Assembly (NCBI GenBank): GCA_964404285.1
Contig: CAYOJK010000003.1
Span: 69,511-133,510 of the forward strand
From: an uncultured bacterium
Lineage (GTDB): Bacteria > CSSED10-310
DNA: 64,000 nucleotides
Direction: 5' to 3'
The notes under the pieces were generated by a model. The model was not told the origin of the DNA. It searched no databases and saw only the letters and a list, made by a program, of their open reading frames with translations. The first letter of the stretch is position 1, and each line of letters begins with the position of its first letter. Positions 4,927-63,990 of this stretch are shown here, piece after piece. The position numbers and the translations under genes were made by a program.

Positions 4927-5689
4927 AAAAACAGCTATAATTGATCCATCAGCAAAATTGGCGGACAATGTTAAGGTTGGTCATTATACGATAATTGGTC
5001 CGGATGTTGAAATTGGTTCAGGATGTGAGATCGGATCGCATGTGGTTTTAGAAGGTCCAATGACGATTGGGGAACGTAACCGTATTTTCCATTTTGCCTA
5101 TATTGGAGGTGTTCCACAGGATATCACCTATAAAGGCGAAAAAAGTCGCGTTGAGATAGGATCTGACAATATCATACGGGAATATGTCACCATCCATCGA
5201 GGAACACCAAAACAAGATTGTCTTACTCGTGTAGGCAGTCACAATTTATTCATGGCTTACGTCCATATCGCGCATGATTGTATTATTGGAAATCATTGTA
5301 TTTTAGCCAATGCTGTCAATATGGGTGGTCATGTAGAGATCGATGATTATGCTTCGATTGGTGGATTGGTTGGTATTCATCAGTTTGTAAGAATTGGTCG
5401 CTATAGTTTTATTGGTGGGCTGAGCGCGGTTACTCGGAATGTATTACCCTTTAGTCTTATATCTGGTGAACGGGCATCGTTGCGTGGAACCAATATAACC
5501 GGATTGCGTCGACATGGGTTCAGCACAGAACGACGAAGTAAAATTGAAAAGGCTATCCGGTATTTTCTGACTCCTGAAACAGCCCCCTCGACAGCTCTGG
5601 AAAAAATAATTAACGAATATCCTAATGATGAAGACATCAAGGAAATCATCAATTTTGCCAACTCTTCAAAGCGTGGTATCACGACTTGA
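4919..5689 (+). CDS. lpxA: Acyl-ACP--UDP-N-acetylglucosamine O-acyltransferase LpxA
   Basis: 256 aa with hexapeptide repeats and an LpxA-like N-terminus ([30 protein letters not shown]) plus the LpxA C-terminal helical domain. Confidence 0.9.
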
Positions 5690-26534: not shown

Positions 26535-27617
26535 TCAGTTCTTTCTATCTATAAACTCAGTCAAGATGTTCAGGTATTTTTCTTGTAGATATAAAACAGT
26601 GCGCTGCTTTTCCGTAATTATTTTTTCAAGGTGAAAACAATATTGTTCCAATTTCCCATATTCAATTTGGTGTTCTTCAAATACGATATTCTTCTCCTTT
26701 ATATCAGTTGACAATTCATGGATTTTCTTATTTAAACCTGTAATGGAAGTTGAGTGACTCTTTAATTCCAATTCTAATTTTTTTATTGTGGATTCAAGTT
26801 TTTCCGCGTAATTAACCAAGTTTTTGAGCGCTGTATGTGTTTTTTTAAAAGCATCAACTATATTACCTGTATCTTGTTTTACGGGTGGCAATTTTAAATT
26901 CGAGCCTTTAAAAACAGGCAATGGAAAATGGCTGGCAACAATAAAAGTACGGTAAGAATCTGTTTCATCCTTACATGTTGTCGGCGCGCTGTTGATCAAT
27001 GCAAAAACTTCATTTCGTATAGGTTGTGCGTCGGGAAGAATGCCTAAAAAGTGGTCGATCAAAGAAGAAAGCAGCCAGATATGGTTAGGAAAGATATATA
27101 GTTTTTTTATGTATTTAAATGTTTCTGCAAGTTTTTGCTCGACGTGATCAGAATTGACGCCGGAAAAAGTAAAATGCTCATCCAAATAACGGTTTGATTT
27201 GCTATATAGATAAGTATAAATATCAGAAAGGGTTTTCTCATGAGTTATGCTGAATTCATGCTTTATGGGAAAAGCAAATATTGCCGTGTGTGAAGTGATT
27301 CTGGATATTTCTTGCAGCATTCTCCCACGGTTTACTTCATCTAAATGTTCCAGGACATCTAAACATACAATGATATCGAAAGCTTTTTTTCTAAACGGCA
27401 ACTGCTCACCATAGCATTGAATCAATGTCCCTTTGGTATTCTTTCGATCAATGTCAGCTTGTATTACAGGATATTGGTTTAAAAAAGATGTTAAAAGATT
27501 TTCGTTTGAACCTAAGTCAAGAATAGTTGGATTAGCCAAACCAGACGCCCTCAATGTTCGGATGTACTCGGTCGTAAAATAATATCTGTTGAATTTATCT
27601 GGCGCTTCGAAGATCAT
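26535..27617 (-). CDS. Class I SAM-dependent methyltransferase with C-terminal coiled-coil tail
   Basis: ILDLGSNENLL...DIIVCLDVLEHLDE matches the Methyltransf_11/23-like motifs I and post-II. The last roughly 110 aa are heptad-rich. Confidence 0.7.
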   Translation of the reverse strand: MIFEAPDKFNRYYFTTEYIRTLRASGLANPTILDLGSNENLLTSFLNQYPVIQADIDRKNTKGTLIQCYGEQLPFRKKAFDIIVCLDVLEHLDEVNRGRMLQEISRITSHTAIFAFPIKHEFSITHEKTLSDIYTYLYSKSNRYLDEHFTFSGVNSDHVEQKLAETFKYIKKLYIFPNHIWLLSSLIDHFLGILPDAQPIRNEVFALINSAPTTCKDETDSYRTFIVASHFPLPVFKGSNLKLPPVKQDTGNIVDAFKKTHTALKNLVNYAEKLESTIKKLELELKSHSTSITGLNKKIHELSTDIKEKNIVFEEHQIEYGKLEQYCFHLEKIITEKQRTVLYLQEKYLNILTEFIDRKN

Positions 27618-40808: not shown

Positions 40809-43019
40809 TTAGTTTCTTAGCGTTAGAAATAAAAAGACTCCTGAAATAAATAGTAACGATCCGAACAGCAAAGCAGTTTGTGGTATGCCTGCAGTAGGCA
40901 GAAAAAGTGTAGACACAAATATGGCGGCAACGGCGCCGCCGATTAAATCCATGCTATAGAATAACGGCATCGAGTCTGGATGCACACGTGATGCGAGAAC
41001 AAATTGAGCGCTCCCCAGAAGACCAGAAAGAAATGCAAATACAAGAATAAATAAAACAGAAGGTGTTCCTAATGTGGATGAGATAACTCCGAGCAAACAG
41101 AGTAGAGCGGCCAAGCAGGTTTGTACCGTTGGAAGAAAAAGCTTGTGTTGCGACTTGAGCAGACTGAACAGGGAACTCCCAAGCGCCAATCCCAAAGCGA
41201 AAATGCCCAGTAATATGCCAGCTTCACGATAAAGCGCTCCCGTGCGGAGCTGGATGAGGAATATCAATAGAACCTGAGTGATCATGGTAACGGACCCTGT
41301 CAGAAAAACAGCGAAAGAAATTTGATGCAATCGGTTTCGAAACAGTGCATGTGTCAAAATGACCACAAAAAAACAAAGTATTGTTATTATTATAATGGTT
41401 TGGCCTTTCAAATGGAAAGGTTTGAAGGTGTCTGGCCGCCATTGCGAATGCCATAAATCAAGGAAAGCTGGAAAAACAATAGGCTTGGTATCTGTAGAAA
41501 ACTCTTTCGTATCAATAGCTGACAATGCATCGATAAAAGACTGAGATTTCAAGGGATTCATGCGATAGGGAAGATATCCTTCAATGGAATAAAAAGGCTG
41601 TAGATTCATGGTTTCAATCCGCTTTAAGATATCATTTGAATCAATCGCCAATGGATTATGAATACCGGCAAATATATGGATGACATCGCCGGAAAGAATA
41701 AGCATGGAATCACGAGAAAAACTCTTGTCTATCGAGTTTAAAATAATATTTATATATCTTCCTTGCTCATCACTAAGAACGTTTTCAGAACCCGTGAGCG
41801 TCATGGCAAATATCCCATCGGGTCGCAACACTTTTCTGATTTCTTTATAGAACTCTTCTGAATAGAAACGTGATGCACTCAAGGATCCAGGAGCGCCGGC
41901 ATTTGATATGACTATATCATAGGTGTTTTCCGGCTGAGCAGCCAGGTATCTTCTTGGGTCGTTTTGAAAGAGCTTTCGTGATTTGGTTTCCGGTGTATAA
42001 CCGATACCGATAAGGTGATTTTGCTCCATGATGGATAAAGGCCCTGTATCCAATGTGACGATATCAATTTCAACGTGCTCGAGCTGATCGGTGATGGTTT
42101 CCATTTTATTTAACAGACCTTCAAGAAGAAGAATTTTGGTCGGATTAGGATGGAGAGCAAGCGCGTAACAGATGGTTTCTTCGTCGATCTGTGAGATGGA
42201 TTGTTGGGACGCAAGTTGAAAATTGTTGAAGAGCGTTAGGGTATCTTCATATTTAACTAAATGCCATCGACCGTAGAGAGTATCGAAGACGGATACTAAA
42301 GATTGTCCGGGCCAGGCGAAAGCATCGAGTTTTTTACCAAGTGTTTTACCGGTGAAGAGAAATGAGAGGGAGAGACATATCAAAACAAAAATAGCTGCTG
42401 TCAATAAAACGGGTTTACGCTGGCCAGGATTTTGTACAAGCAGATAGACGAAGAGAAAAAGAGGGATGAGCATGGCAAGAATAAAGCCGGCCAAGTGTAG
42501 TGTACTGGCGCTGGCAAAGTGAATGGATCGAATACAGACTGCTGATGTGAGAGCGCCAAAAGCTTCGGTAGCGTAAATCGCCGCAGCTTTTCGATGGTTG
42601 CCGCCTGCTGCTCTAATGAACCTGACAGGTAAGGCGAAAAGGAGACCATTCACTATACAAAAAGGTATCAAGATCAGGGAAGGAGATAAAAAGAAATCCA
42701 CTAGCCTGGGTAATTCCCCGGGTGTGCGATCAAGAAAAGCTGGAAAAATTCTGTAACCAATCAATGTCAGCGGTAATAGACAAGCCATAACAAACGGAAG
42801 GATCATCAGTTGTTTTCGGTGTAATGATAATCGATGACCAATGAAGCTGCCTAAACCGGTTAAAATCAGCCATATTCCAAGAAAAATTGACACAGATAAC
42901 TCGTTATCGTTATTTTGAGCCAGGCTTTCTTGGATTAAGATGATCTGCAATGAAGTAGCCGCATAACCAGAAAATAGAGTCACCAACATGGGGGTATAAT
43001 AAATTCGATTACTATTCAT
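40809..43019 (-). CDS. Polytopic membrane protein with an embedded spermidine/spermine synthase-like (PABS) methyltransferase-fold domain
   Basis: Hydrophobic helices at both ends. The central domain carries the PABS signature (DIVISNAGAPGSLSASRFYSEEFYKEIRKVLRPDGIF). Confidence 0.65.
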   Translation of the reverse strand: MNSNRIYYTPMLVTLFSGYAATSLQIILIQESLAQNNDNELSVSIFLGIWLILTGLGSFIGHRLSLHRKQLMILPFVMACLLPLTLIGYRIFPAFLDRTPGELPRLVDFFLSPSLILIPFCIVNGLLFALPVRFIRAAGGNHRKAAAIYATEAFGALTSAVCIRSIHFASASTLHLAGFILAMLIPLFLFVYLLVQNPGQRKPVLLTAAIFVLICLSLSFLFTGKTLGKKLDAFAWPGQSLVSVFDTLYGRWHLVKYEDTLTLFNNFQLASQQSISQIDEETICYALALHPNPTKILLLEGLLNKMETITDQLEHVEIDIVTLDTGPLSIMEQNHLIGIGYTPETKSRKLFQNDPRRYLAAQPENTYDIVISNAGAPGSLSASRFYSEEFYKEIRKVLRPDGIFAMTLTGSENVLSDEQGRYINIILNSIDKSFSRDSMLILSGDVIHIFAGIHNPLAIDSNDILKRIETMNLQPFYSIEGYLPYRMNPLKSQSFIDALSAIDTKEFSTDTKPIVFPAFLDLWHSQWRPDTFKPFHLKGQTIIIITILCFFVVILTHALFRNRLHQISFAVFLTGSVTMITQVLLIFLIQLRTGALYREAGILLGIFALGLALGSSLFSLLKSQHKLFLPTVQTCLAALLCLLGVISSTLGTPSVLFILVFAFLSGLLGSAQFVLASRVHPDSMPLFYSMDLIGGAVAAIFVSTLFLPTAGIPQTALLFGSLLFISGVFLFLTLRN

Positions 43020-50540: not shown

Positions 50541-52676
50541 ATGATTGGAAAGAGTAAATTATCAAAATTTGGATTATTTACTAAAAGGCTTGGAATCATG
50601 ATTATTGGGATTCTGGCTGTCGTCATGATAAGCAAGCTTACAATCCAATACGCTCAAAGCCAGTTTCAATCAGGCATTGGCGTTTTTCATCAATTTGACC
50701 CTGTGTTTTCGATCTTTCGCCTTATAGGTGAGTGGGTTATCACCTCAAGCAGTGCTCATTGGTGTGTTTTTTCAGTGTTTACCACAATCATAATAGTGAC
50801 CATGTCTTGTGTTATATGCATAAAACATAAAAGCATCTGTAAGCCAATGGTTTTTATTGCTTTATCGATTGTTTTGGGTTTGTGGGCACGGTTTATCTCG
50901 TTTCACAACTCATCATCCTCTTGCTTACCCTGGATATTGTTGTGTTGTTCGGTTTTATCCGCCTTTTTTGCTGCCCTTATGTCTGGAACCGATATGAATG
51001 AAACACATTCAAAACCGGCTAAAAGAGTTTGGATCTGTGTAGCTCTAGTATTGATAGCAGGCTTTTTATTTCGAGTGTACCGATTGGATACTTTGCCGCC
51101 GGGACATGCACAGCACACGGCTCAATGGGGAATGATCGGAGCACGGAAGGCGTTACAACAAAAAGCAACATGGATAGACGAAGAAGGTCGACGTTTTTTT
51201 CTGGAACAAGTGAAATTGCTTATAGTGAATGAGCCGCATCAGGAAGGCCTCAATATATTTGTTGACTGGTTGCTTGCGAGCTGGTTTGGACCATCGCTTG
51301 TAGTTCAGCGAACAGCAACGGCCATGGTAGGACTTTTATCCCTGGTTGCGCTTTATTGGACAGCAGGTATCAACTTCGGCCGAAAAACCGCCTGCTTGAC
51401 CATGTTTTTTGCGGCAATATCACCATGGCATATTATGCATTCGCGCTATTCAAATATTGAACATATTTTACCACTCTTACTTGTTATTTTGTCGATGGGA
51501 CTACTGAAGAAATATCTACAAACTCGTTCGCTTAAAACTGCCATTTTACTACTTCTTGTCTTAGTTGCAGATTTTCATGTCTATGTCATTGCTCAATTTA
51601 TTGTCCCGATTATTCTGATAGTCTGGATAAATTCAATTTTTCAGACCAAAGATTTTCGTAAAACATCATTGGTTACTCTTGGGGTGGTATTCTTGTTATT
51701 TAGCATTGGTATAGCGCCAAAAACCGGTTTGTATGGCTGCAAAGATCACATTTCACTTTTAAACACATCGATAATGGCGCATCCATCTTATGTTATTCAA
51801 GGACAGAATGTTGTTGTTAGAAATATAATTACTGTCTTTCGTGGTTTATTTCTAAATGGAGAGGGTTCATTTTGGTTTCATAAAACGAATGGACATCTGA
51901 TTTGGCCGATTTCGATATCTCTAGTTATCGGTTTGGCTTATGCTTTCGTCAATCTTCACAAGTGGGCTTATCATTCGTTAATAATGTGGTTTTTTATTGG
52001 TTTGATTCCTGCCTTACCTTCGTCTGATCCAGCGCCTCGGCGTATTTTATGTGCATTACCTGCGATATACATTTTAGCAGCGTTAGGAGTTGACCATTTA
52101 CTCTCTCGATTAGTCGTGTGGCCGCTTATTCAGAGACGGTGGATGATAGTTTTTTTGTCGGGAGCATTGGCAGTATTGTTGTTATGCGGGGCATGGGTCT
52201 CATTTGAATACAATTCTATCAGCAGGGAAGACTTTTTGAATGGAAAAGAAAGGCGTTTTGCTGAAATTGTGTGTAGTTATCTGCCGGATTATACGGTTTA
52301 TTCTTTTTTGGACTCCTATACCAGGATTCAAAAAATCTGGATGATTTGTGGATGGTTGGGGCCGGAAGAGCCGTCACCCAATGCCGTGAAATTTTTAGAT
52401 CCGGAAAATGATCTGGATACATTGATCAAAACACGTGCTATACAACCGGTTTCCGAAGAAAAGCGTGGAGTCGTTTTTATTCTTCCCGCTTATCAAAATG
52501 GCTTGACAACGATTCAGGATGTGATGAAGCTTTTTTCAGAAGGAGACCATCAGTATTATAGGTTTGATCCTTATTTTAAGAATCATGATAAGGGTGAGCA
52601 GGAGTTTATTAGCTGGAAAGTCCAGAAGCATCTATTTAACGAAGTGTTAGAGATGTGGTCGTTTTCCGATATTTAA
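50541..52676 (+). CDS. Large polytopic membrane protein, GT-C/PMT_2-like putative glycosyltransferase
   Basis: 711 aa with at least 12 hydrophobic helices and an architecture like the ArnT/PMT-type membrane transferases encoded downstream. No soluble catalytic motif recognised. Confidence 0.45.
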   Translation: MIGKSKLSKFGLFTKRLGIMIIGILAVVMISKLTIQYAQSQFQSGIGVFHQFDPVFSIFRLIGEWVITSSSAHWCVFSVFTTIIIVTMSCVICIKHKSICKPMVFIALSIVLGLWARFISFHNSSSSCLPWILLCCSVLSAFFAALMSGTDMNETHSKPAKRVWICVALVLIAGFLFRVYRLDTLPPGHAQHTAQWGMIGARKALQQKATWIDEEGRRFFLEQVKLLIVNEPHQEGLNIFVDWLLASWFGPSLVVQRTATAMVGLLSLVALYWTAGINFGRKTACLTMFFAAISPWHIMHSRYSNIEHILPLLLVILSMGLLKKYLQTRSLKTAILLLLVLVADFHVYVIAQFIVPIILIVWINSIFQTKDFRKTSLVTLGVVFLLFSIGIAPKTGLYGCKDHISLLNTSIMAHPSYVIQGQNVVVRNIITVFRGLFLNGEGSFWFHKTNGHLIWPISISLVIGLAYAFVNLHKWAYHSLIMWFFIGLIPALPSSDPAPRRILCALPAIYILAALGVDHLLSRLVVWPLIQRRWMIVFLSGALAVLLLCGAWVSFEYNSISREDFLNGKERRFAEIVCSYLPDYTVYSFLDSYTRIQKIWMICGWLGPEEPSPNAVKFLDPENDLDTLIKTRAIQPVSEEKRGVVFILPAYQNGLTTIQDVMKLFSEGDHQYYRFDPYFKNHDKGEQEFISWKVQKHLFNEVLEMWSFSDI

Positions 52677-52802
52677 AGTGATGGAGCTGGGGTCAGGATT
52701 GACAGGAGTTGGCTTTAAATGCTAGATTTATATCTTGTTTTTGTCATATCGGCAACGATCGCTGTAGGAAGAGTTTTTGACGATGATTAAGGGGTAGCAG
52801 TA

Positions 52803-55760
52803 ATGGAAAACGAATCACCATCAATTAAATCAAATAAAACGAACAAACTATACGCAGGTTTGACATTACAATCCTGGCTGTGGATAGGTTTATTTGTATT
52901 TGTTATTTTCACTCGATTCCATCATTTAGGTGATAAACCGTTTCATCACGATGAAAGTTTGTATGGTAAATACATTTGGAATTTCCATGTAGGACAAGGG
53001 TATAAGTATGACCCGATGCAGCATGGCCCCTTTTTATTTCATATCAGTCAGGTGATTTTATTTCTGTTTGGCGTCACGAATTACACCATACGGATAGTGC
53101 CGGCATTGACAGGTGTATTCATCACGCTGGCATTTTTTCTGATGAGAAGACGATTGCCGTCTGGGGTGGCATTAATGACTGGGTGGTTATTTGCCATTAA
53201 TTCCGTCGCGATGTATTTCCAGCGCTTTCTTCTTCATGATCAACTGTTTGCACTCTTCGCCATGTTGATGATCTTGGTGGCTTTATTGTGGTTTGCTGAT
53301 CGAAAACAATGGCAGTTTTATCTGTTTTGTGCCTCGACATCGATATTGTATTGCATCAAGGGAAATGCTTTTGTCCATTATTTAACGATTTATTTGTTTG
53401 TGATTTTGTTTGCGGTTTACTGGCTGTTCATGCAAAAGAAAAAGTTATCCGAGTTGTTTCAGACCTACCCACTGGCGACAAAAACATTTGGAGCGGTGAC
53501 TTTTTGGGGAATATTATTTGTTGTCTATGCTGCGGTCAATCAATTTTGGAAATCCGGATTCGGCAATTGGGAAAAAGCGGTTCACTCGTACTGGATTATT
53601 GTATATGTCATATTTTTCCTGTTAATTGGGATTTTTGTCTATTTAGGTGAAGCTGTTCGGATCAATCCTGATAAACGTCCGTTGGGCCTAGCTTCGTCTT
53701 TTTATAAAGACAGTCATGTTTTTGCCTTTGGAACAGTAATTTTCTTCGGTATTTTAATTTTGCTGTACACAACACTCGGACAAAATCCAAAAGGGTTTTG
53801 GGGCGCTATGTACGAATGGTACACGTACTGGCTGCATCAACACTCAATTGCTCGAATATCCGGACCATTCCATTATTTCCATCATCAGATGGCGATATAC
53901 GCCTTTTTATCACTGAGTGTTTTGTTGGTCGCTGTTTTAGGCAGAGGAATTCGTAGAAATCCTGTCATATTCACTATTTACATAGTCGGATCAATTCTAT
54001 TGATATTTGGATTTAGATCATTGAATAGCCCGCTTCCTTTAACGAAAGAAAACCTTTTCACCAATGAGCATTTAGCGCTCGCCATAGTTGTGCTCGTTGG
54101 TGGGTTATTGATGACGTTTTCATATTTTCGGCAGCGTGAATATTTAAAAAGCTTTTATATATGGTGGTTTACTATAGCTTATATTATTTATTCCTATCTG
54201 CAGGAAAAAGTGCCTTGGTTGGTCATGCATATCGTGACACCGATGATTCTATATGCGGCTTTGGTTATGGCTGACGTTATCCGAGACAGGAAAAGTTTTC
54301 AAAAGTGGGCTAGGTACACAATTTTCACAATTTTTGGTTTCCTGATAGCCTATGAATTACACACATCCTTTCAATTATGTTGGCATAATGAAGCTGACCC
54401 GGTTGAGCAGATGGTATATGTTCAGACGACCTATGAAGTCCCCAAAATCATGGAAGAGATCGAGCGGATTGCTCATTGGGAAAACACGTTACACAAGAAA
54501 GAGCTGCCTATTGTAATCAATGGTCATGCAACCTGGCCGTTCTATTGGTATCTGCGTGATTGGAAGGGAATCAGTTATGGTTCAACGGTCAATCCGTCAA
54601 CTCACCTAATGGTTATCTGCAACTGGGAAGACCGTCACAAGTTTGCTGAGAAGATGGACGACAAATATGTCGCAAGACAATATGGTTTAAGAGCGTGGTT
54701 TTTACCTAAATATGCCGATGTTGCCAAAGATGGTAAGTTTTGGCGAAATGCTTGGCGATGGCTGGTATATCGCGAAAAATTCAACCCGACTTTGTATGGC
54801 GCTCAACAGATTTGTGTTTTTACACGAAAAGATGTTGCTATGTTTCAAAAAGGTATCGATTTAGGGCCTGCGCCAACTAAGCCCCAACGTCGTGAAGCGC
54901 CCAGACGGGATTCGATTAATATCAGCAGCATTAAAACATTTGGCTTATTTGGATCTCAGCGTGGAAATCTGAACTCGCCCAAAGGTGTAGCAATGGATTC
55001 CATAGGAAATATTTATGTGGCCGATCAACGAAATAATCGTATTCAGAAGTTTGATCAGAACGGTAAATTTTTATTGGCCTGGGGATCAAGCGGCTCAGAA
55101 AACGGTCAGTTCAATCAGCCAAGCGGCATTTTTGTAGGTAATCAAGACAACGTATTTGTAACGGATACCTGGAATCATCGAATTCAAAAGTTTGATTCTG
55201 AGGGGAAGTTTATTATGGCCTTTGGTGATAGTTCGACATTTTGGGCGCCAAAAGGTGTTGTCGAAGATCCTGACGGTTTCCTTTATGTTGCCAACACGGG
55301 TTTCCACAATATCATGAAATACACACGCGGCGGCAGCAAATTGTGGAGTGTTGGAGTCAAAGGCGATGGCCCCAAGGAATTTACTGAACCGGTAGGTATA
55401 TGCCTGGATAAAAAAGGCCAAGTGTATGTTGCAGATACTGCAAATAAACGAATATCGGTGTTTGATGGTAATGGAAACCATTTGCGCCAGATTTCTGTGT
55501 TTGGGTTGGAGGAATATTACACTGAGCCCTATATAGCTATCGATGAGACAAACCAGAGAGTTTTTCTAACGGATTCACGAAATAATCATATTCAAATATT
55601 TGATTTAAATGGTGAATTCATTGGTTTCTGGGGTTCGGAAGGTGCAGATGACGGCCAATTCAAATTGCCGACTGGTATTGCATTTCGTGATGGCAAACTT
55701 GTTGTGACCGAAGCTCAGAATCATCGAATACAGGTTTTCGATGCTGCTATGTTGAATTAA
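52803..55760 (+). CDS. PMT_2/GT-C-like polytopic membrane domain (TIGR03663-like) fused to a C-terminal NHL-repeat beta-propeller
   Basis: N-terminus TRFHHLGDKPFHHDESLYGKYIW...MQHGPFLF, with a DE motif in the first loop as in PMT/ArnT families. The C-terminal 290 aa contain six or more NHL repeats (GIAMD..GNIYVADQRNNRIQKFD). Confidence 0.65.
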   Translation: MENESPSIKSNKTNKLYAGLTLQSWLWIGLFVFVIFTRFHHLGDKPFHHDESLYGKYIWNFHVGQGYKYDPMQHGPFLFHISQVILFLFGVTNYTIRIVPALTGVFITLAFFLMRRRLPSGVALMTGWLFAINSVAMYFQRFLLHDQLFALFAMLMILVALLWFADRKQWQFYLFCASTSILYCIKGNAFVHYLTIYLFVILFAVYWLFMQKKKLSELFQTYPLATKTFGAVTFWGILFVVYAAVNQFWKSGFGNWEKAVHSYWIIVYVIFFLLIGIFVYLGEAVRINPDKRPLGLASSFYKDSHVFAFGTVIFFGILILLYTTLGQNPKGFWGAMYEWYTYWLHQHSIARISGPFHYFHHQMAIYAFLSLSVLLVAVLGRGIRRNPVIFTIYIVGSILLIFGFRSLNSPLPLTKENLFTNEHLALAIVVLVGGLLMTFSYFRQREYLKSFYIWWFTIAYIIYSYLQEKVPWLVMHIVTPMILYAALVMADVIRDRKSFQKWARYTIFTIFGFLIAYELHTSFQLCWHNEADPVEQMVYVQTTYEVPKIMEEIERIAHWENTLHKKELPIVINGHATWPFYWYLRDWKGISYGSTVNPSTHLMVICNWEDRHKFAEKMDDKYVARQYGLRAWFLPKYADVAKDGKFWRNAWRWLVYREKFNPTLYGAQQICVFTRKDVAMFQKGIDLGPAPTKPQRREAPRRDSINISSIKTFGLFGSQRGNLNSPKGVAMDSIGNIYVADQRNNRIQKFDQNGKFLLAWGSSGSENGQFNQPSGIFVGNQDNVFVTDTWNHRIQKFDSEGKFIMAFGDSSTFWAPKGVVEDPDGFLYVANTGFHNIMKYTRGGSKLWSVGVKGDGPKEFTEPVGICLDKKGQVYVADTANKRISVFDGNGNHLRQISVFGLEEYYTEPYIAIDETNQRVFLTDSRNNHIQIFDLNGEFIGFWGSEGADDGQFKLPTGIAFRDGKLVVTEAQNHRIQVFDAAMLN

Positions 55761-55827
55761 AGTCGGAAGCATTTTTCCGGTTTTCATCCATAGTAGTCAT
55801 CGTTTTCTGACAGGGAGGATCAGTGAC

Positions 55828-58197
55828 GTGGCTGAAGGACTGCTGCTGGTGTTTAAGTGGTGGTTGTTGATCCAGGTAATGGGGTTGGTTACCTGGCCAT
55901 TGGCACATCGATTTTTTCGAAGTTACCCGGACAGAGGATATATATTGAGCAAAGGGCTTGGCCTGATTCTGACTGGGTTTCTTAACTGGTTTCTTGTTTC
56001 GATACATCTTTTTAGATTTTCCCGTTTTTCAATTTGGTTTGCTATTGTCTGTGTTGCTCTGGCGTCTTGGTTTTTAAAAGTTGTGCCGATTCGGGAACTG
56101 TTCCGATTTTTTAAAGAACAAAAACGACTTGTCTTAACGATAGAAATAGTGTTTTTAGCAGCATTTATAGCTTTTACACTCGTTAGAATGGGGAACCCTG
56201 AAATTGCTCAGACAGAAAAAATGCCTGATTTCGCATTTCTTACAGGAGTCGTAACCAGTGATTATTTTCCCCCACGAGATCCATGGTACGCCGATGGAAC
56301 CATCAACTATTTTTATTACGGCCATTATCTTGTTGGAGTGCTCACAAAATTAGCGGGCACTGCTCCAGAATATGGGTTTAACTTAGGTGTTGCCGTGATT
56401 TTTGCGTTTACATTGTTAAATGCATCCGGAGTTGCGTTCGGTTTGATAAAAAAACTCCGATATGGAGTCTTAGGTGGTCTTTTTGTCGCTTTTATTGGAA
56501 ATCTTGACTGTGCAATACAATTATTCTCCAGCTTGAGCAAAATCCTAGCAGGTAGCCAAAAGTTTTATCCTTTCAATTGGTTTAACTGGTGGATGAGTTC
56601 GCGTGTTATTGTTCGTGAGGGGATAGATATCACTATCAATGAATTTCCGTTCTGGAGCTATATTTTGGGCGATTTGCATGCGCACATGAATGTCGTTCCG
56701 ATTTCTTTGATTGTTTTAGCAATTATACTTGAACATTTCAGGCACTCCGCGACAGGTTTAGATGGTCTAGGGGTGGGTCGTGATAAATGGTTCAGAATTG
56801 TTATAACAGCAATTGTTTTAGGCGCAATTCCATGTGCTAACACCTGGGATACACCGACATATTTTGCTCTGATGGTAGCTGCGATTCTACTAGCCAGACA
56901 ATTTCGGCCTGCAAGTCAATTGTTAACAGCAACGGATCAAGGTGAGATTTCTGTTGCTAAAATTATTGTGTCGCCGCTTAAAGAGTTATTCAACCGCATT
57001 TTGCCTAAAACTCTGCCGGGTGAGAAGAATGATTGGAAAGAATATCTGCTTTCCTGGCTTGGTGTTGTCATTATTATTGTGGCGGCATTATCCTTTTATG
57101 CTCCCTTTTATGCTTCTTTTCATCGGGTTGAAACAGGAGGATTAAAAATCGTCAATCCGAATCAATACACGTTAGCCGATGATTTCCTGACAATCTACGG
57201 ATTCTTCTTTTATTGTATGTTCCCCTTTGTTTTGGCACTAGTGTACCACCGGTTTACAAGCTTGAACGAACGGTTGAAGCCTTTAGTCGGTATTGCTTTG
57301 ATTCTGTTCTTTTTTGCTTTGTTCCTCGCTTTTGATCGGTTCATGATACCGTTCTGTCTGTTTTTTCTGTTCTTTACACTTGCTGTCCCGTTAAAAAAAG
57401 ATGACCCTGACATCAAAGAAAAGTTTTTTGCTCTGGCCTTGTGCGTGATGGTGTTGCTTGTTTTGTTGGGATGCGAGTTTTTCTATATTAAAGACGCTTA
57501 TGGCAAGACTCTGGAACGGCAAAATACGATTTTTAAATTTTACTATCAGGCATGGATATTTTGTGGCATTTCGGCTGCCTATGCCGTCTATTGGTTTCAA
57601 TGGAAAGCTCCAAAAACATTGAGTATTGTTTGGGAGCCTGTTTATAGACTTCTTCTGATTTGTACTTTGATGTTTCCATTTGTTGGATCAGCTGTAAAGA
57701 CCAATTATTTCCATAGTTTCACCCGTCCTTCTTCCCATGCAAAAGCCACTCTAGATGGGATTCATTATATGAGTTGGCAATATAAAGGAGATTATGAAGC
57801 TATCAAATGGCTGAAAAAACATGCCGGCCCCAAACAACGCGTTTTGGAGGCGACTGGGCCGGCTTTTTCTCATTACGGCCGGATATCGGCCGCGACAGGA
57901 ATGGCGACCATTTTAGGTTGGGGAAACCATGAAAACCTTTGGCGTGATGGTACCTGGAAAGTGATTGGAGTTCGATCAGAAGAGGTTAAGCAGGTTTACA
58001 CATCGAATAATCCGGTAAAAATCAGAGAGATTCTTGATAAATATAAAATAGACTTTGTTTTTTATGGCAAACTGGAAAGGGAGCAGTATCCGGGATCATC
58101 ACCGACACATTTCACGTTTTTAGAAAAAGTTTTGGAAGCAGGCGAAGCTGATGGAAACACATCATATTTGTTTCGGTACTCAACTTCGAATGGTTGA
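55828..58197 (+). CDS. YYY-domain (DUF2298 / TIGR03662-like) polytopic membrane protein
   Basis: DYFPPRDPWYADGTINYFYYGHYLVG and EFPFWSYILGDLHAHM motifs. Paralogous to the middle of ORF 58216-63990. GTG start after GGGAGG. Confidence 0.6.
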   Translation: MAEGLLLVFKWWLLIQVMGLVTWPLAHRFFRSYPDRGYILSKGLGLILTGFLNWFLVSIHLFRFSRFSIWFAIVCVALASWFLKVVPIRELFRFFKEQKRLVLTIEIVFLAAFIAFTLVRMGNPEIAQTEKMPDFAFLTGVVTSDYFPPRDPWYADGTINYFYYGHYLVGVLTKLAGTAPEYGFNLGVAVIFAFTLLNASGVAFGLIKKLRYGVLGGLFVAFIGNLDCAIQLFSSLSKILAGSQKFYPFNWFNWWMSSRVIVREGIDITINEFPFWSYILGDLHAHMNVVPISLIVLAIILEHFRHSATGLDGLGVGRDKWFRIVITAIVLGAIPCANTWDTPTYFALMVAAILLARQFRPASQLLTATDQGEISVAKIIVSPLKELFNRILPKTLPGEKNDWKEYLLSWLGVVIIIVAALSFYAPFYASFHRVETGGLKIVNPNQYTLADDFLTIYGFFFYCMFPFVLALVYHRFTSLNERLKPLVGIALILFFFALFLAFDRFMIPFCLFFLFFTLAVPLKKDDPDIKEKFFALALCVMVLLVLLGCEFFYIKDAYGKTLERQNTIFKFYYQAWIFCGISAAYAVYWFQWKAPKTLSIVWEPVYRLLLICTLMFPFVGSAVKTNYFHSFTRPSSHAKATLDGIHYMSWQYKGDYEAIKWLKKHAGPKQRVLEATGPAFSHYGRISAATGMATILGWGNHENLWRDGTWKVIGVRSEEVKQVYTSNNPVKIREILDKYKIDFVFYGKLEREQYPGSSPTHFTFLEKVLEAGEADGNTSYLFRYSTSNG

Positions 58198-58215
58198 TAC
58201 AGTGAAGGAGAAATC

Positions 58216-61200
58216 ATGAAATCTAAAGATCATTGGACAGAGGCCGGGAAAATCAGACGACGTAACTGGCTTCTGGTTCTCCTGTTTTTCTTAGGATTAG
58301 GCTTGAGATTGCATGGATTCAATTGGGGATTACCGCATCACTTTCATCCGGATGAACGTCAAATTGTCGATTTTCAAGCCCCCAAGGTACGCCTTGATAT
58401 CCTTAATCCTAAAAAATCACTCCCGCTATTGGTCAAAGGTGATTGGAAACAGCTCGATACGATGCTTTCCGGTATGAACACCAAGTTTTTCGCCTACGGA
58501 CCCCTGCCCATGTACACGTTGGTCATCGCTGTTGAAACACAGGATTGGATTAATAATCATGTGCGATCTTTTTCCGCCAATCAATCTTGGATATCTTTAG
58601 AGACTCATTTGAAGATAAATAATTGGTTTCCTCCATTAAAAGATGGTAGGGGGCGAATTATCATGGGTCGGATTTTAGCGGCGCTATTTTCAGCTTTTAC
58701 GATCTTGATTGTATTTCGGCTGGGAAAATACATGTACAATGTCAAAATCGGATATTTAGCTGCCGCGTTTTTTACATTCACTGTGCTATCTATTCAACAA
58801 GCACATTTTATGATTGTCGATGGCCCGCAGACATTTCTTGTTGCATGCGCAATGTATTACCTTGTACGAATAGCCATGGGTGACCGCCGACGTGACTACT
58901 ATTTATCCGGTATTTTTATCGGCCTAGCAATGGCGACTAAATTCAGCACTTCTCCAATAGCGCTCTCATATATATTGGCTCAGCTTCTATCGATGACGCT
59001 GGGCCGTCGTCGGGACAAAGCCTACTGGATTCACTGGATAGCAGGTGGAATTACCGCATTAGTGGTCATGACTATAGTCATGCCTTTTTGGATACTCGAT
59101 TCTCAAACGTTTTTCCGAGATATTACCGCTCAAAGCAATATGGTCACCGGTATCGCTGATTTGCCTTATACCATTCAGTTCGAACACACGATGCCGATAG
59201 TGTACATGCTTCAAAACCTAGTGTTATGGTCATTGGGATTGCCATTGGGTTTGGCAGCTCTTATTGGTTTAATTGCCGCAATTAGAAGAATCTGGAAAAA
59301 TCCTGAAGATCTGGGAAATATCGTTATTTTGTCATTTATTCTGCCACTAATGTATTTTAATGGAACATTTTTCGCCAAGTTTCTCAGATACACACTGGTT
59401 ACTATACCATTTCTAACTTTGTTTGCCGCCCGTTTGCTGCTCACCATGAAATCCTGGGCAGGGCGACGCTGGGAAAGAATAGCGACACTAGCGGTTATGA
59501 TTGGAACAATTCTTTGGGCAACAGCTTTTCAGACGATTTATTTGAAGCCGCATACTCGAATTCAAGCATCAGATTGGATATATGAGAACATTCCCGCTGG
59601 TAAAAACATTGTCCTGGAAAGCTCCTGGGATGATTCGGTGCCGGTATCAACTGAAAAAGGAACCCCAAGGATTTACAGCAGCAAACAAATGGGTGTCTAC
59701 AAGGAACCGGACAACCAGCTCCGTGCCAAGGCTATGGCAGAAATTTTGGAATGGGGGGATGTGGTCGTCCTGGCCTCTCGAAGACATTATGGATCAGTCA
59801 CTCGAGTTCCGAATCGCTATCCGGTATCTACTAATTTTTACAAACTTCTTTTTAATGAAAAACTGGGATATCAACATGTTAAAACGTTCGACAACCCTCC
59901 TGCATTGGGTCGACTGAAATTTAGAGATGATTTGGCTGATGAGAGCTTTAGAGTCTATGAACACCCTCGAGTCGATATTTTTGTCAAAGAATCAGGAATT
60001 TCAGCAAGTGGAATCGAAGCTCTTTTAATGGCGCCTCCGTCTGATGTTGTCGACATGAGCTACACGGAACTGCTGACCCGAAGACCTGCTACAGAGCTAG
60101 GATCACACGTTAATTATCCGATTATAAAATGGCTGTTGGCTATCTATATATTGGGATTCATTTGTATCCCTTTTGCCTATGTTATCTTTTCCAAATTTGA
60201 GCACAAAGGGTATCCATTTACCAAGTTAATGGGTTTGTTGATTGTTGGCTATTTTTCTTGGTTGATACCTAGCGCTCAATGGCTGCCTTTCTCTAGAACT
60301 TTGATCATTGCTGTAATGATTTTATTAGGATGGGCTGCCTATGTTACGTTTACAAAGCATTATACAGGAATTGCCAAATTTGTTCGTGAACGATGCTGGA
60401 GTATTGCCGGATATGAAATTTTGTTCTTAATAATATTTTGCTTATTTGGACTACTGAAAAGTTATAATCCGAACATTTACTGGAGTGAAAGCTCCATGGA
60501 TTTCGGCTTTTTAAACGCTGTTCTCAGAGCTGAATATTTTCCACCTGAGGATCCATGGATCCAGGGTCAGGGCATTAATTATTATTATTATGGACACTAT
60601 CTAGCAGGTTTTTTAACTAAGTTGACCGGCATAGAAGCTCATTACGGATACAATCTGTTTTTTATTACCATTCCCTCTTTAGTAGCGTTAAGTGTAGCCG
60701 CAATTCTTCTAGCCTTGACGCGACGTGTATGGGTTGCGTTAATAGGAGTTGTATTCTCCATTTTAATTGGAAACCTGGACGGATTGCCACAAATGGCCAA
60801 TATATGGGTTCGAAATTCACGCGGAACTAACACCTATCGCTTTGCAACCTTTTTTCAGACCATTATCGGTCAGGTTTTTAATCTTGGAAGACAAGACAAT
60901 CATTTTCGTTTTTTCCGTTCGGCACATGAACTCATACGACCAACGGTTCATGAATTTCCTTTTTGGAGTTATAACTTCATGGACCTTCATGCACACACTC
61001 TTGCGACAATGTTAACCGTGTTCTTCCTGGCGCTTCAATTAGTACTTTTACGAAATGAAAAAAATGGGATCAATTTGTTTGGTGATACCAAAACTGGCCG
61101 AGCCATGACCTTAGGGATTTTGTGGATAACATTTGGAGCGATGATCTCGACAAATTCATGGGATATACCGATACAGGTGATCTTGATGCTTTTAATATCT

Positions 61201-63990
61201 TTGTGGGTGATGGTTTATGTATCACGTCACCCTACCTATAGTATCAAAACCCAGCGCATTCCATCAGCGCCTTATCTGGATACACACGCCCAATCAGAAG
61301 ATTCCCTTTCCACTGAAAAACAGATCGATCAAAGCGAACAGATTCAATCTGGTGATGATTTAACAGTGACATTTTCAGAAATGTCCGTATCAGAGCCTGA
61401 CTCGTCAGAGTTACTGGACAGTGACACCAGAATTATCAATATAGAAGATCTATCAGATCCTGAACAAGAAAATGAAATTGAACCTCAAATTAAAGGAATA
61501 GATCAGCAAACTGAATCGGTTAATCAATCGAGTAATATGGCCGACCAGGTTTTCAAATCAGTAAACAAAGAAACGGAAGCGCATACATTTGAAGAGATAG
61601 AGTCAAAAGAGGTGTCTCTAAATGATGGTGATTCTGATAACACTGAACTGTCAAAACCGTTTTTGGATCGTTTGATCACTTGGGTGGACAATGGAATCAA
61701 ATGGGTGGCAACAGAGATATTTTTGACGCTATCATTTCTATGGAAACTTTTGTGGCCTTTAGCAGCGGTAATTGTTGGCGGCGTCGTTCTGCATTTACCT
61801 TTTCTAAATACATTTCACCGAGCAGGCATGGGTATAGGAACGCTATGGAAATACCGGCAGACAACCAATTTGGATGGTTTTCTAACCATGTTTGGATTCT
61901 TTATATTTATCTTTATCACACAATTTATCCTATGGTGGTGGAAAATACAGAAAGATAAAGGCCGCTCAACCGTTCAGATTTTATTCATCCTGGTAGCGGT
62001 TGTTACGATTTTGGCCCTGGTTTGGTATGGCCTTCTGACAATTCCAACGCGAAGTATCGATCATGCTGTTTTGCTGATAAGCATTTTTATCATTTACCTC
62101 CTTGGTTCCATTATTCTTGAAGGGCAGCCTGATGCCAATGAGGTGTTCCCATTGCTTCTGGCATTAGGTGCAGTCGGTATTACTGCCGGGTGTGAACTGG
62201 TATTTATAAAAGATTTCTACCACGGCAGCGATATGCGTCGATTCAATACGATTTTCAAGTTTTATATGCAAGCTTGGTTCATGTTTGCCCTTGTCTCAGC
62301 ATATTTAATGGCAAGACGATCACGTATTCGACATCGAGCTTATAAAAAGGCATCAACGAAATTTTTTGTTCAACTTGGATCCTGGGGATGGAGCATCGTA
62401 TTCCTGTTTCTATTTGGCGGATCCTTGATTTTTACATTTTGGGGAGTTTATGCACGTCATCATAATGGTGATTTTCAACAAGGCTTCAACTTTCCACCTG
62501 GCAGTCGAAGCCAATTAAAGGAACTTCCGTTAACGCTCGATGGTTGGGCATATATGAAAAAAGGGTATAGGCCTGTCAGCGAATATCGTGCGATTGATTG
62601 GTTGCAAAAGCACGTCAAGGGCACACCTGTTATTCTTGAAGCAAGTGGAGCTGACTATCTTTACCAATATGGAAATATTTCCGGTAATACCGGGCTGCCA
62701 ACAGTATTGGGCTGGTGGAGTCATGTCGATCAGCGAGAGTACTTGGTTCGAAAGGCTCGTGGAAAAGGGGAACGTGATAGACCTATTGATACCGGCAAAA
62801 TAAAGCGCGATATCGTCACGATGTATAGTAGTGTTGATATTCCAAAAGTCCTGAGTCTTCTAGGCCAATACCGGGTACGATATATTTTCGTTGGACCAAC
62901 CGAAAAAGCAGAATATGAATCACTTGGGTTGGAAAAGTTTAAAGAGATGACAACGTTTTTGACGCCTGTGTATTCCAATTCTGAAGTTGTAATATACGAA
63001 GTTCACGATTATGGACAAAGTGTTGATTTGGCTACGGCTATACAAGACAACACAGCGCTGAAAAGATTGCAGCAAGAAATGGCTGAGCGTGAAGAACAAG
63101 AACGTCTAAAGAAGATCGAAGCAGAACAAGAACAACAGCGGCGCATAATCAATATGCCGGCTCGAACGCTTTTCAAAGGATCCAAAGGCATTGGACGAGG
63201 TATGTACGAAGAGCCACGATCACAATCTGTTGCACCGGATGGTTCGATATATATTGCAGATTTTCGTAATCATCGCATCCAAAAATTTAATGCTGAAGGT
63301 GAATGGCAGTTGATGTGGGGCTCAACCGGAAATATGCCAGGGCAATTTAACGATATTTGCGATGTCGCAGCTAACTCACAATATGTTTATGTTCTGGATA
63401 CCTTCAACAATCGTATACAGATGTACTCGCATCAAGGTAGCTTTATTAGACTAATTGTGCCTGGTGATTACTCTATTTCGCACCCACGAGGAATTGCTGC
63501 CGATGAAGATTATATTTTCCTGTCCGATACAGGGAATTCTAGAATCATTCGAATGAATGCGTCAGGAGCCGACCCGATGCTGATCGGTAAAAGCGGTAAA
63601 GGCCAACTGCAATTTGGACACCCTGTTGGCATAGATATCAAGGGTGATGAAGTTTTTATTGTTGATACCCAAAACCAGCGTATTCAGGTAATCTCCAAGG
63701 ACGGTGCATATCTTCGCGAGTTCCCGGTTGAAGGTTGGGTAGCTGAAGTCTATAACGAACCTTATGTTGTCGTTGCATCGGATGGAACACTTTATTATTC
63801 AGATCCTTCTAAAGGTCAGGTAACTCAAATCGATCAAGATGGAAAAATTCTGAAACGTATCCGTAACAGTATCGATGGCAACTCATTATCGCTTCCTATG
63901 GGATTGGGCATAATGCCTAACGGGGATGTTTTCGTTGTGGATGCTGGAAATCATGCGGTTGTAAAAATATTTTCTCAGCATGAAGAATGA
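58216..63990 (+). CDS. Giant (1924 aa) fusion: PMT_2/GT-C-like membrane domain, YYY (DUF2298) membrane domain split by an acidic disordered linker, coiled coil, and a C-terminal NHL-repeat beta-propeller
   Basis: N-terminus GLRLHGFNWGLPHHFHPDERQIV. Mid-protein EYFPPEDPWIQGQGINYYYYGHYLAGF and EFPFWSYNFMDLHAHT. Acidic low-complexity segment at about aa 1010-1140. The C-terminal NHL repeats (SIYIADFRNHRIQKFN...) are paralogous to ORF 52803-55760. Confidence 0.65.
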   Translation: MKSKDHWTEAGKIRRRNWLLVLLFFLGLGLRLHGFNWGLPHHFHPDERQIVDFQAPKVRLDILNPKKSLPLLVKGDWKQLDTMLSGMNTKFFAYGPLPMYTLVIAVETQDWINNHVRSFSANQSWISLETHLKINNWFPPLKDGRGRIIMGRILAALFSAFTILIVFRLGKYMYNVKIGYLAAAFFTFTVLSIQQAHFMIVDGPQTFLVACAMYYLVRIAMGDRRRDYYLSGIFIGLAMATKFSTSPIALSYILAQLLSMTLGRRRDKAYWIHWIAGGITALVVMTIVMPFWILDSQTFFRDITAQSNMVTGIADLPYTIQFEHTMPIVYMLQNLVLWSLGLPLGLAALIGLIAAIRRIWKNPEDLGNIVILSFILPLMYFNGTFFAKFLRYTLVTIPFLTLFAARLLLTMKSWAGRRWERIATLAVMIGTILWATAFQTIYLKPHTRIQASDWIYENIPAGKNIVLESSWDDSVPVSTEKGTPRIYSSKQMGVYKEPDNQLRAKAMAEILEWGDVVVLASRRHYGSVTRVPNRYPVSTNFYKLLFNEKLGYQHVKTFDNPPALGRLKFRDDLADESFRVYEHPRVDIFVKESGISASGIEALLMAPPSDVVDMSYTELLTRRPATELGSHVNYPIIKWLLAIYILGFICIPFAYVIFSKFEHKGYPFTKLMGLLIVGYFSWLIPSAQWLPFSRTLIIAVMILLGWAAYVTFTKHYTGIAKFVRERCWSIAGYEILFLIIFCLFGLLKSYNPNIYWSESSMDFGFLNAVLRAEYFPPEDPWIQGQGINYYYYGHYLAGFLTKLTGIEAHYGYNLFFITIPSLVALSVAAILLALTRRVWVALIGVVFSILIGNLDGLPQMANIWVRNSRGTNTYRFATFFQTIIGQVFNLGRQDNHFRFFRSAHELIRPTVHEFPFWSYNFMDLHAHTLATMLTVFFLALQLVLLRNEKNGINLFGDTKTGRAMTLGILWITFGAMISTNSWDIPIQVILMLLISLWVMVYVSRHPTYSIKTQRIPSAPYLDTHAQSEDSLSTEKQIDQSEQIQSGDDLTVTFSEMSVSEPDSSELLDSDTRIINIEDLSDPEQENEIEPQIKGIDQQTESVNQSSNMADQVFKSVNKETEAHTFEEIESKEVSLNDGDSDNTELSKPFLDRLITWVDNGIKWVATEIFLTLSFLWKLLWPLAAVIVGGVVLHLPFLNTFHRAGMGIGTLWKYRQTTNLDGFLTMFGFFIFIFITQFILWWWKIQKDKGRSTVQILFILVAVVTILALVWYGLLTIPTRSIDHAVLLISIFIIYLLGSIILEGQPDANEVFPLLLALGAVGITAGCELVFIKDFYHGSDMRRFNTIFKFYMQAWFMFALVSAYLMARRSRIRHRAYKKASTKFFVQLGSWGWSIVFLFLFGGSLIFTFWGVYARHHNGDFQQGFNFPPGSRSQLKELPLTLDGWAYMKKGYRPVSEYRAIDWLQKHVKGTPVILEASGADYLYQYGNISGNTGLPTVLGWWSHVDQREYLVRKARGKGERDRPIDTGKIKRDIVTMYSSVDIPKVLSLLGQYRVRYIFVGPTEKAEYESLGLEKFKEMTTFLTPVYSNSEVVIYEVHDYGQSVDLATAIQDNTALKRLQQEMAEREEQERLKKIEAEQEQQRRIINMPARTLFKGSKGIGRGMYEEPRSQSVAPDGSIYIADFRNHRIQKFNAEGEWQLMWGSTGNMPGQFNDICDVAANSQYVYVLDTFNNRIQMYSHQGSFIRLIVPGDYSISHPRGIAADEDYIFLSDTGNSRIIRMNASGADPMLIGKSGKGQLQFGHPVGIDIKGDEVFIVDTQNQRIQVISKDGAYLREFPVEGWVAEVYNEPYVVVASDGTLYYSDPSKGQVTQIDQDGKILKRIRNSIDGNSLSLPMGLGIMPNGDVFVVDAGNHAVVKIFSQHEE

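Follow-up and report, generated by a model that had tools for sequence, protein, structure and literature searches.

Four consecutive genes on the forward strand occupy positions 50,541 to 63,990 of a 64,000-nucleotide (nt) stretch of DNA, here called the window in its entirety, from contig CAYOJK010000003.1 (assembly GCA_964404285.1) of an uncultured bacterium of the CSSED10-310 lineage, and all four encode polytopic membrane proteins of the glycosyltransferase-C (GT-C) superfamily. Designated O1 to O4 in their 5' to 3' order, they are O1 (50541..52676; 711 amino acids (aa)), a divergent GT-C protein of the PMT_2 type; O2 (52803..55760; 985 aa), an Agl23/TIGR03663-type GT-C protein followed by a predicted periplasmic linker domain and a six-bladed NHL propeller; O3 (55828..58197; 789 aa, with a GTG start), a member of the DUF2298/TIGR03662 (Chlor_Arch_YYY) family; and O4 (58216..63990; 1924 aa), a triple fusion of a PMT_2-type GT-C domain, a DUF2298 module and an NHL propeller. 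All four belong to catalogued families, and their features are conserved, poorly studied and found beyond the source genome.

These open reading frames (ORFs) agree exactly in position, strand and length with the initial annotation of this DNA, whereas the depiction of the array as a set of four genes is incomplete, as the gene cluster continues past the end of the window. The short intergenic gaps (126, 67 and 18 nt for O1-O2, O2-O3 and O3-O4) suggest that O1 to O4 form an operon; a scan for promoters and terminators across the array returned counts not above those of shuffled sequences. The start of O1 is ambiguous: the longest ORF begins at 50541 and gives 711 aa, and public gene calls use an internal ATG at 50598, giving 692 aa.

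Folds and conserved residues of the array proteins

O3 matches DUF2298 with an E-value of 1.4e-106 and TIGR03662 with 537 bits (cutoff 300). An AlphaFold model built from a 59-sequence alignment (predicted local distance difference test (pLDDT) 94.5, predicted template modeling score (pTM) 0.94) depicts DUF2298 as a GT-C protein, with about 16 transmembrane (TM) helices preceding an AglB-like C-terminal periplasmic domain. A Foldseek search with this model returns full-length AglB first (7e9s, E 6.8e-8, probability 1.0, 828 columns), followed by DPY19, AftA, ArnT and Pmt4. The AlphaFold models of two array proteins (pLDDT 94.5 for O3 and 91.5 for the other) both display GT-C folds, in keeping with the glycosyltransferase similarity proposed at the outset. 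A transporter fold was also considered for DUF2298 and rejected, with transporter structures appearing at Foldseek probabilities of at most 0.13.

Inspection of the 59-sequence alignment shows that the conserved polar residues of DUF2298 cluster in loops placed on the periplasmic side. The first long loop of O3 (56194..56364, residues 123-179) contains the invariant E130, D151 and W153, the near-invariant D134, and the YYY motif in the form INYFYYGHYL (residues 159-168), with a phenylalanine at the middle position (NYFYYGH). The second loop (56632..56685) carries the motifs T269-I-N-E272-F-P and G-D282-L-H284-A-H286, within which E272, P274, D282 and H284 are invariant and T269 and H286 are at least 90% conserved, yielding an 80% consensus of TINEFPf.s..lGDLHAH. 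Across the family, the invariant positions are E130, D151, W153, G165 (following YYY), E272, D282, H284, P426, E550, R564 and N566, together with G691 and H701 of the C-terminal soluble domain (57700..58194, residues 625-789). This domain has a predicted AglB/STT3-like globular fold, and these two residues lie inside its conserved GW..HE..WR motif.

The AglB-like architecture raises the question of whether DUF2298 is a true oligosaccharyltransferase, that is, a divergent orthologue of STT3/AglB/PglB that would transfer a polyprenol-diphosphate-linked oligosaccharide en bloc to asparagine residues of envelope proteins, leaving the PMT_2-type enzymes to finish the glycan. The position of AglB as the top structural match over 828 columns speaks for this, as do the periplasmic TINE and D-x-H (DLH) motifs, which may be reminiscent of the TIxE and DxH motifs of AglB. 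However, the WWDYG motif (WWD[YWF]G) occurs in none of the 59 family members and in none of O1 to O4, the Pfam scan of the array proteins yields no STT3 (PF02516) match, and profiles do not match the oligosaccharyltransferases of the PDB. Further, PMT, ALG12, AftA and ArnT match the membrane domain no less well than STT3, and the genomic partners of DUF2298 are of the GT2/PF03706 polyprenol-phosphate-monosaccharide type, as opposed to an initiating phosphoglycosyltransferase or Wzx. Additionally, haloarchaea with DUF2298 also possess a genuine AglB. On balance, a true oligosaccharyltransferase is decidedly improbable, and the oligosaccharyltransferase-like character suspected for the family in the initial annotation holds for the fold, C-terminal domain included, and fails at the level of sequence.

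Two sequence links were sought and rejected. Full-length and C-terminal-domain profiles of DUF2298 compared with PDB sequences gave insignificant matches alone (3vu0, E 0.74), and hhalign assigned a probability of 1.5% to a relation between DUF2298 and Agl23/PMT_2, a relation that is seen in structure alone.

O4 combines a PMT_2-type GT-C domain (residues 1 to about 445), a soluble linker (about 446-630), a complete DUF2298 module (636-1590) and an NHL domain (about 1640-1916), with matches to PMT_2 of 46.5 bits (gathering threshold (GA) 26.1), to DUF2298 of 4.4e-83, to TIGR03662 of 413 bits (cutoff 300) and to NHL of 2.1e-18. Its DUF2298 module is paralogous to O3, with 31% and 28% identity in two BLASTP segments, and retains every invariant residue of the family, including a YYY motif in the form INYYYYGHYL (60574..60603, residues 787-796). 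The expected INY[FY]YYGHYL motif is consequently present in two proteins of the array. The gap between the two BLASTP segments coincides with an acidic low-complexity insert (61222..61770, residues about 1003-1185; 37 D/E per 161 residues), which splits the DUF2298 module at a loop corresponding to residues 360-402 of O3 and predicted to be cytoplasmic. The N-terminal GT-C domain of O4 has an H44-P45-D46-E47-R48 motif (58345..58359), a motif shared by every aligned domain of this type at other loci (36 in total, 35 fused to DUF2298 and one free-standing); five further sequences of the type gave no aligned residues at the motif. A search of O4 residues 1-600 against PDB sequences found nothing.

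O2, O3 and both catalytic modules of O4 thus keep the acidic or histidine residues that are invariant in their respective families. In O2 these include an H48-H49-D50-E51 motif in the first extracytoplasmic loop (52944..52955), and R38, H49, D50, E51, H74, G75, P76 and R141 are at least 90% conserved among 56 members of the Agl23 family. O2 scores 244 bits against TIGR03663 (cutoff 126) and 25.6 bits against Pfam PMT_2, just under the GA of 26.1, and its membrane domain structurally matches ALG12 and ArnT. As initially annotated, an N-terminal domain bearing a DE motif occurs in both O2 and O4 (HHDE and HPDER); these two domains, however, have no mutual BLASTP or phmmer match, and therefore represent different subfamilies and not one shared domain. 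The NHL propellers of O2 (54915..55757, residues about 705-985; four repeats, 3e-40) and O4 (63133..63963) are paralogous as described, with 32% identity (E 2.5e-39 in BLASTP; 134.9 bits in phmmer). The C-terminal domains of O1 and O3, region 529-705 of O2 and region 441-635 of O4 matched nothing in the Pfam scan.

The structural models predict that in Agl23, a family named for flipping, the transferase fold is complete and its catalytic residues are conserved. The namesake of TIGR03663, Haloarcula hispanica Agl23 (HhAgl23), has been described as a putative dolichyl-phosphate (Dol-P)-hexose flippase: it suppresses a yeast rft1-delta mutant, and the purified protein moves M5GN2-PP-lipid across the proteoliposome bilayer, with the exposure of M5GN2-PP-Phy rising from 50% to 75% in 2 h and 90% in 4 h, Agl22 serving as the negative control (PMC11182771). 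The claim that none of the families is functionally characterized is hence wrong for O2, and transport by a homologue, which had been named as counter-evidence to a transferase array, touches the family of one of the four genes. These data, the NCBI family name "flippase activity-associated protein Agl23", and the lack of any other flippase candidate in the window, where a PF03706 profile search finds none, would accord with O2, and perhaps other GT-C-like proteins, mainly moving polyprenol-linked sugars, the groove acting as a conduit for the lipid head group. However, the most conserved residues of Agl23 are the H-D-E of the first extracytoplasmic loop and the HGP motif, which are typical of GT-C catalysis and needless for passive scrambling; the assayed lipid differs from the proposed native substrate; and it is hard to see what an NHL propeller in the periplasm would contribute to flipping. 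Moreover, Agl23 stands beside a separate gene for an MprF-type flippase-like protein at eight of the loci surveyed below. The complete transferase fold, the conserved H-D-E and this frequent separate neighbor argue that flipping is not the sole or main role of Agl23, and a primarily flipping O2, though a serious rival reading, is unlikely.

O1 is the most divergent member of the array. Its match to Pfam PMT_2 (20.2 bits) is under the GA of 26.1, and hhalign relates its family to Agl23 with 93.5% probability (E 2.4e-7). Relative to its PMT_2 relatives it carries about 160 additional N-terminal residues, forming extra TM helices. A word-indexed search recovered seven relatives, and a full HMMER scan 640 at E <=1e-3 and 10 at E <=1e-30, the distant ones being ordinary PMT_2 proteins of about 520 aa; one clade member, 33% identical to O1, has a C-terminal NHL domain. 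An N-terminal GT-C-like domain, initially recognized in two proteins of the array, is accordingly present in those two and extends to O1, which lacks the DE. The alignment places H192-T193 of the O1 loop motif PPGHAQHTAQWG (51096..51131, residues 186-197) at the position of the catalytic Asp-Glu. Here the canonical relatives, as well as the 714-aa and 1021-aa paralogues encoded downstream of the array, have PPG..(P/C/N)DE(A/I) in the first periplasmic loop, and the whole O1 clade conserves PPGxAQHTAxWG. The replacement of Asp-Glu by His-Thr suggests that O1 is related to GT-C enzymes but probably serves as a partner that lacks catalysis or has altered chemistry, and is possibly a pseudo-enzyme.

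The topology was assessed by combining the helices of the AlphaFold2 models with a positive-inside count made by hand (lysine plus arginine in loops of at most 60 residues). O3 emerges as a 16-TM protein with both termini outside (18 positive residues among 99 inside versus 13 among 156 outside) and O2 as a 15-TM protein with the N-terminus inside and the C-terminus outside (17 among 69 versus 10 among 136). The HHDE loop, the YYY loop, the TINE/DLHAH loop, the segment E550-N566, the AglB-like domain and the NHL propeller are all predicted to be periplasmic, and the same model places the acidic insert of O4 in a cytoplasmic loop. The order of domains in O4 is topologically self-consistent, running from a GT-C domain (N-in, C-out) through a periplasmic linker and a DUF2298 module (N-out, C-out) to the propeller. 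This consistency and the positive-inside count disfavor a cytoplasmic orientation of the acidic motifs, and support the initial annotation in assigning the DE and YYY loops, as well as the propellers, to the periplasm.

Gene neighborhoods, phyletic distribution and host

The four-gene array is half of a larger locus. O4 ends 10 nt before the end of the window, and contigs encoding an identical O4 protein (L006 to L008) reveal a convergent operon directly past it, outside the window (15965-25025 of L006). Along the minus strand, this operon encodes a 320-aa GT2 (PF00535, 90 bits), a 969-aa protein with an N-terminal NHL domain and a PMT_2 domain (43.5 bits), a 714-aa PMT_2 protein (29.6 bits) and a 1021-aa PMT_2 protein (36.2 bits) with a weak C-terminal NHL-like match. 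The best NCBIfam matches of the GT2 are AglJ, Dol-P-hexose transferase, PpgS, PgfS and ArnC, all of which are polyprenol-phosphate-sugar synthases. The full locus therefore comprises seven GT-C proteins of five subfamilies, three clear NHL propellers and one weak NHL-like match, together with a GT2 that is the likely donor synthase.

Three database entries are 99-100% identical to window proteins, and 33 blocks of the assembly collection index an entry with complete identity to O1 across 97% of the O1 sequence. The same gene order recurs in GCA_029973845.1 (O3 orthologue 85% identical) and in the best GTDB species representative, a CSSED10-310 metagenome-assembled genome (MAG) from Zodletone spring (O3 orthologue 65%). 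A scan of species-representative genomes with a 15-sequence DUF2298 query detected at least 560 DUF2298 loci, the best 80 of which were censused with purpose-built HMMs. These 80 are mostly from Chloroflexota, namely Dehalococcoidia, Anaerolineae, Caldilineales and Ktedonobacteria (including the cultured Tengunoibacter tsumagoiensis), and also include Methanosarcinales, Methanoperedens, ANME-2, Binatia and Acidobacteriota; haloarchaea carry DUF2298 as well.

Within this set, an Agl23-type gene lies beside DUF2298 at 39 of the 80 loci, and a PMT_2 domain of the type found at the N-terminus of O4 is present at 40, almost always fused N-terminal to DUF2298, such that at least one PMT_2-type GT-C partner, fused or adjacent, accompanies DUF2298 at 60. 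NHL fusions are seen at 13 loci. A cassette of the form [PMT_2-DUF2298 fusion] - [DUF2298] - [Agl23] - [Agl23+NHL] - [PMT_2+NHL] recurs in Chloroflexota, with eight loci as examples, and the array in the window is a permutation of its parts. The notion that the array is unique to the source organism was rejected, given that its order is kept in relatives and the cassette is common in Chloroflexota.

The commonest extra neighbor of DUF2298 is PF03706, an MprF flippase-like membrane domain (16 loci). In Methanosarcinales and ANME-2 a fusion of GT2 and PF03706 of about 575 aa adjoins DUF2298, and in Dehalococcoidia the gene order is DUF2298 - Agl23 - PF03706. The DUF2298-Agl23 pair of Dehalococcoidia often adjoins genes for an SRP54-type GTPase and RNase III.

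The window also informs on the host. BamA (864-3242), LpxD (3841-4926) and LpxA (4919-5689) are encoded in a forward-strand cluster at its start, showing that the host is a diderm with lipid A synthesis, and the nearest genome belongs to the candidate division CSSED10-310, in line with the lipopolysaccharide-bearing non-Chloroflexi host initially surmised. A 174-aa ORF without a family match lies between BamA and LpxD. The upstream neighbors of the array are the housekeeping genes tig, clpP, a GTPase gene, purE and folD. Elsewhere on the forward strand, 20830-22755 encodes a 641-aa protein with a PMT_2 domain at residues 65-218 (40 bits) and TPR repeats at 446-632, a TMTC-like architecture that constitutes an eighth GT-C protein near the array; it adjoins a GT4 (22771-24186), a GT4+GT2 fusion (24183-26531) and a methyltransferase (26535-27617). 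Two other proteins of the window may be noted: a 956-aa forward-strand product (7840-10710) joins Peptidase_MA_2, PD40 beta-propeller repeats and an Omp85 barrel, an uncommon architecture for Omp85, and a reverse-strand gene (40809-43019) encodes a 736-aa membrane protein in which a spermidine-synthase-like domain is weakly recognized (PRK03612, 54 bits, far below cutoff).

A possible extracytoplasmic glycosylation system

From the folds, conserved residues, likely topology, fusions and gene neighborhoods described above, we infer an enzymatic activity, a donor, a pairing and an acceptor. The locus appears reasonably likely to specify an extracytoplasmic glycosylation system that uses polyprenol-phosphate sugars, with envelope or surface proteins as the favored acceptor. 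In such a system, the GT2 would use a nucleotide sugar at the cytoplasmic face of the membrane to charge undecaprenyl phosphate with a hexose. The lipid-linked sugar would then be flipped, a step that a separate MprF-type PF03706 protein may perform in related loci and for which O2 is a possible candidate here, whereupon the GT-C enzymes would pass sugars successively to an acceptor held in the periplasm. On account of their nearly constant fusion or adjacency, DUF2298 and its PMT_2-type partner could act as a functional pair, fused in O4 and adjacent in O2-O3, comparable to Pmt1-Pmt2 and EmbA-EmbB. The NHL propellers, along with the AglB-like domain, might bind the acceptor.

DUF2298 is biased toward lineages that bear a surface (S-) layer. 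This bias, the AglB-like domain, the analogy with the PMT-MIR and TMTC-TPR architectures and haloarchaeal genetics lead us to rank envelope or surface proteins first among acceptors, although only tentatively, with a polysaccharide or glycolipid placed behind them as nearly as likely.

Several observations weigh against the proposed system. O1 has H192-T193 in place of an acidic catalytic residue in its first extracytoplasmic loop; the sole experimentally studied relative of O2 is reported to be a flippase and not a transferase (PMC11182771); every NCBIfam match of the downstream GT2 falls below cutoff; the locus has no candidate acceptor gene and no flippase gene; and the topology derives from a hand-made count and not from a dedicated predictor. 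Additionally, since NHL propellers elsewhere bind very different ligands, they lend little support to a protein acceptor in particular.

The multiplicity of GT-C proteins also allows a scheme in which seven or eight such enzymes synthesize a polysaccharide or glycolipid of the periplasm or cell surface, or add sugars to it, after the model of the mycobacterial Emb/Aft/PimE or the endoplasmic reticulum (ER)-lumenal ALG3/9/12/6/8/10 series, with the propellers binding carbohydrate or serving as scaffolds and no protein being glycosylated. The presence of many distinct GT-C subfamilies in one locus fits such stepwise extension, lectins such as 4csd are found among six-bladed propellers, and a GT-C enzyme with a C-terminal carbohydrate-binding module (CBM) is known (PMC11127046). 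However, the C-terminal domain of DUF2298 resembles the globular domain of AglB/STT3, which there contacts the acceptor peptide, and the nearest relatives of the NHL propellers are NHL domains that bind protein or RNA. Further, the sole genetics in the family concerns the N- and O-glycans of S-layer glycoproteins, and the locus showed no genes for the export or polymerization of polysaccharides, whether of the Wzx/Wzy/Wza or the ABC type. This scheme seems less likely than not, and the glycosylation of envelope proteins from polyprenol-phosphate sugars remains our preferred interpretation.

A bolder extension, which we regard as improbable, would make DUF2298 a third, STT3-independent class of protein glycosyltransferases, in which the WWDYG peptide clamp has been exchanged for GW..HE..WR, the enzyme works only when paired with a PMT_2-type GT-C protein, and the NHL or TPR domains select folded envelope proteins. 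Were this so, Chloroflexota, CSSED10-310 and some archaea would possess a previously unrecognized general protein-glycosylation system.

DUF2298/TIGR03662 and TIGR03663 are large families in Chloroflexota, several candidate phyla and methanogenic and halophilic archaea, on which almost nothing has been published; the literature search found no paper on DUF2298, TIGR03662 or TIGR03663 as such, and a full-text search none joining NHL repeats with GT-C. The above analysis supplies a concrete model of envelope glycosylation for lineages whose surface chemistry is largely unknown, to which the window adds a diderm, lipopolysaccharide-bearing host and an extreme version of the locus with seven GT-C proteins, one of them an apparently inactivated paralogue. 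The most useful leads are the oligosaccharyltransferase-like DUF2298, its seemingly obligatory pairing with a second GT-C protein, the paralogue O1 with its DE-to-HT change, and the conflict between a published role of Agl23 as a flippase and its predicted GT-C fold, which poses a specific question regarding that assignment.

Comparison with known glycosyltransferase systems

Like AglB/PglB/STT3 (GT66), DUF2298 appears to consist of a GT-C membrane domain followed by an AglB-type C-terminal globular domain. It differs from them in the absence of WWDYG, of an STT3 HMM match and of a sequence-profile relation, in having about 16 TM helices as against 13, with about four helices preceding the catalytic loop, and in genomic partners that suggest monosaccharide-phosphate donors. 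O2, in turn, shares with Haloarcula hispanica Agl23 the H-D-E and HGP motifs and the GT-C membrane domain, and its locus includes a Dpm1-type GT2, just as Agl22, a GT2 Dol-P-hexose synthase, accompanies Agl23. Unlike the haloarchaeal protein, O2 is bacterial, has a periplasmic extension of about 450 residues ending in an NHL propeller and is flanked by DUF2298 genes; moreover, whereas the former is described as a flippase, the predicted fold and motifs of O2 argue for a transferase.

In the mycobacterial Emb/Aft and the ER-lumenal ALG3/9/12 systems, as proposed here, GT-C enzymes act serially on the non-cytoplasmic face of the membrane, and heterodimers are formed (EmbA-EmbB); ALG12, AftA and AftD are top structural matches here. 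This likeness is one of fold alone, with no sequence relation, and the array is devoid of acyl-carrier or arabinan genes.

The GtrA/GtrB/GtrC, CsbB/GtcA/YfhO and PgfS/PgfM1 systems unite a GT2 synthase, a flippase and a GT-C enzyme, and related DUF2298 loci likewise have GT2, PF03706 and GT-C proteins. Such three-component systems include one whose GT-C enzyme has a C-terminal acceptor-binding CBM (PMC11127046), and the streptococcal PgfS/PgfM1 and GtrB/PgtC2 are pathways of protein O-glycosylation (PMC11092751). The present locus departs from them in having seven GT-C proteins of five subfamilies in place of one, in lacking a recognizable small flippase, and in the GT-C families involved, which are DUF2298 and TIGR03663.

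Finally, the array shares with PMT and PMT_2-type enzymes an Asp-Glu in the first extracytoplasmic loop, and a polyprenol-phosphate sugar is the expected donor; the PMT-like AglS, for instance, adds Dol-P-Man-derived mannose to a protein-bound glycan (PMC4973528). The joining of a GT-C membrane domain to a lumenal or periplasmic interaction domain is also seen in PMT1/2 with MIR, TMTC1-4/TMEM260 with TPR and GT136 with a CBM. In the array, by contrast, the appended domain is a six-bladed NHL propeller, and O4 chains two different GT-C modules in a single polypeptide.

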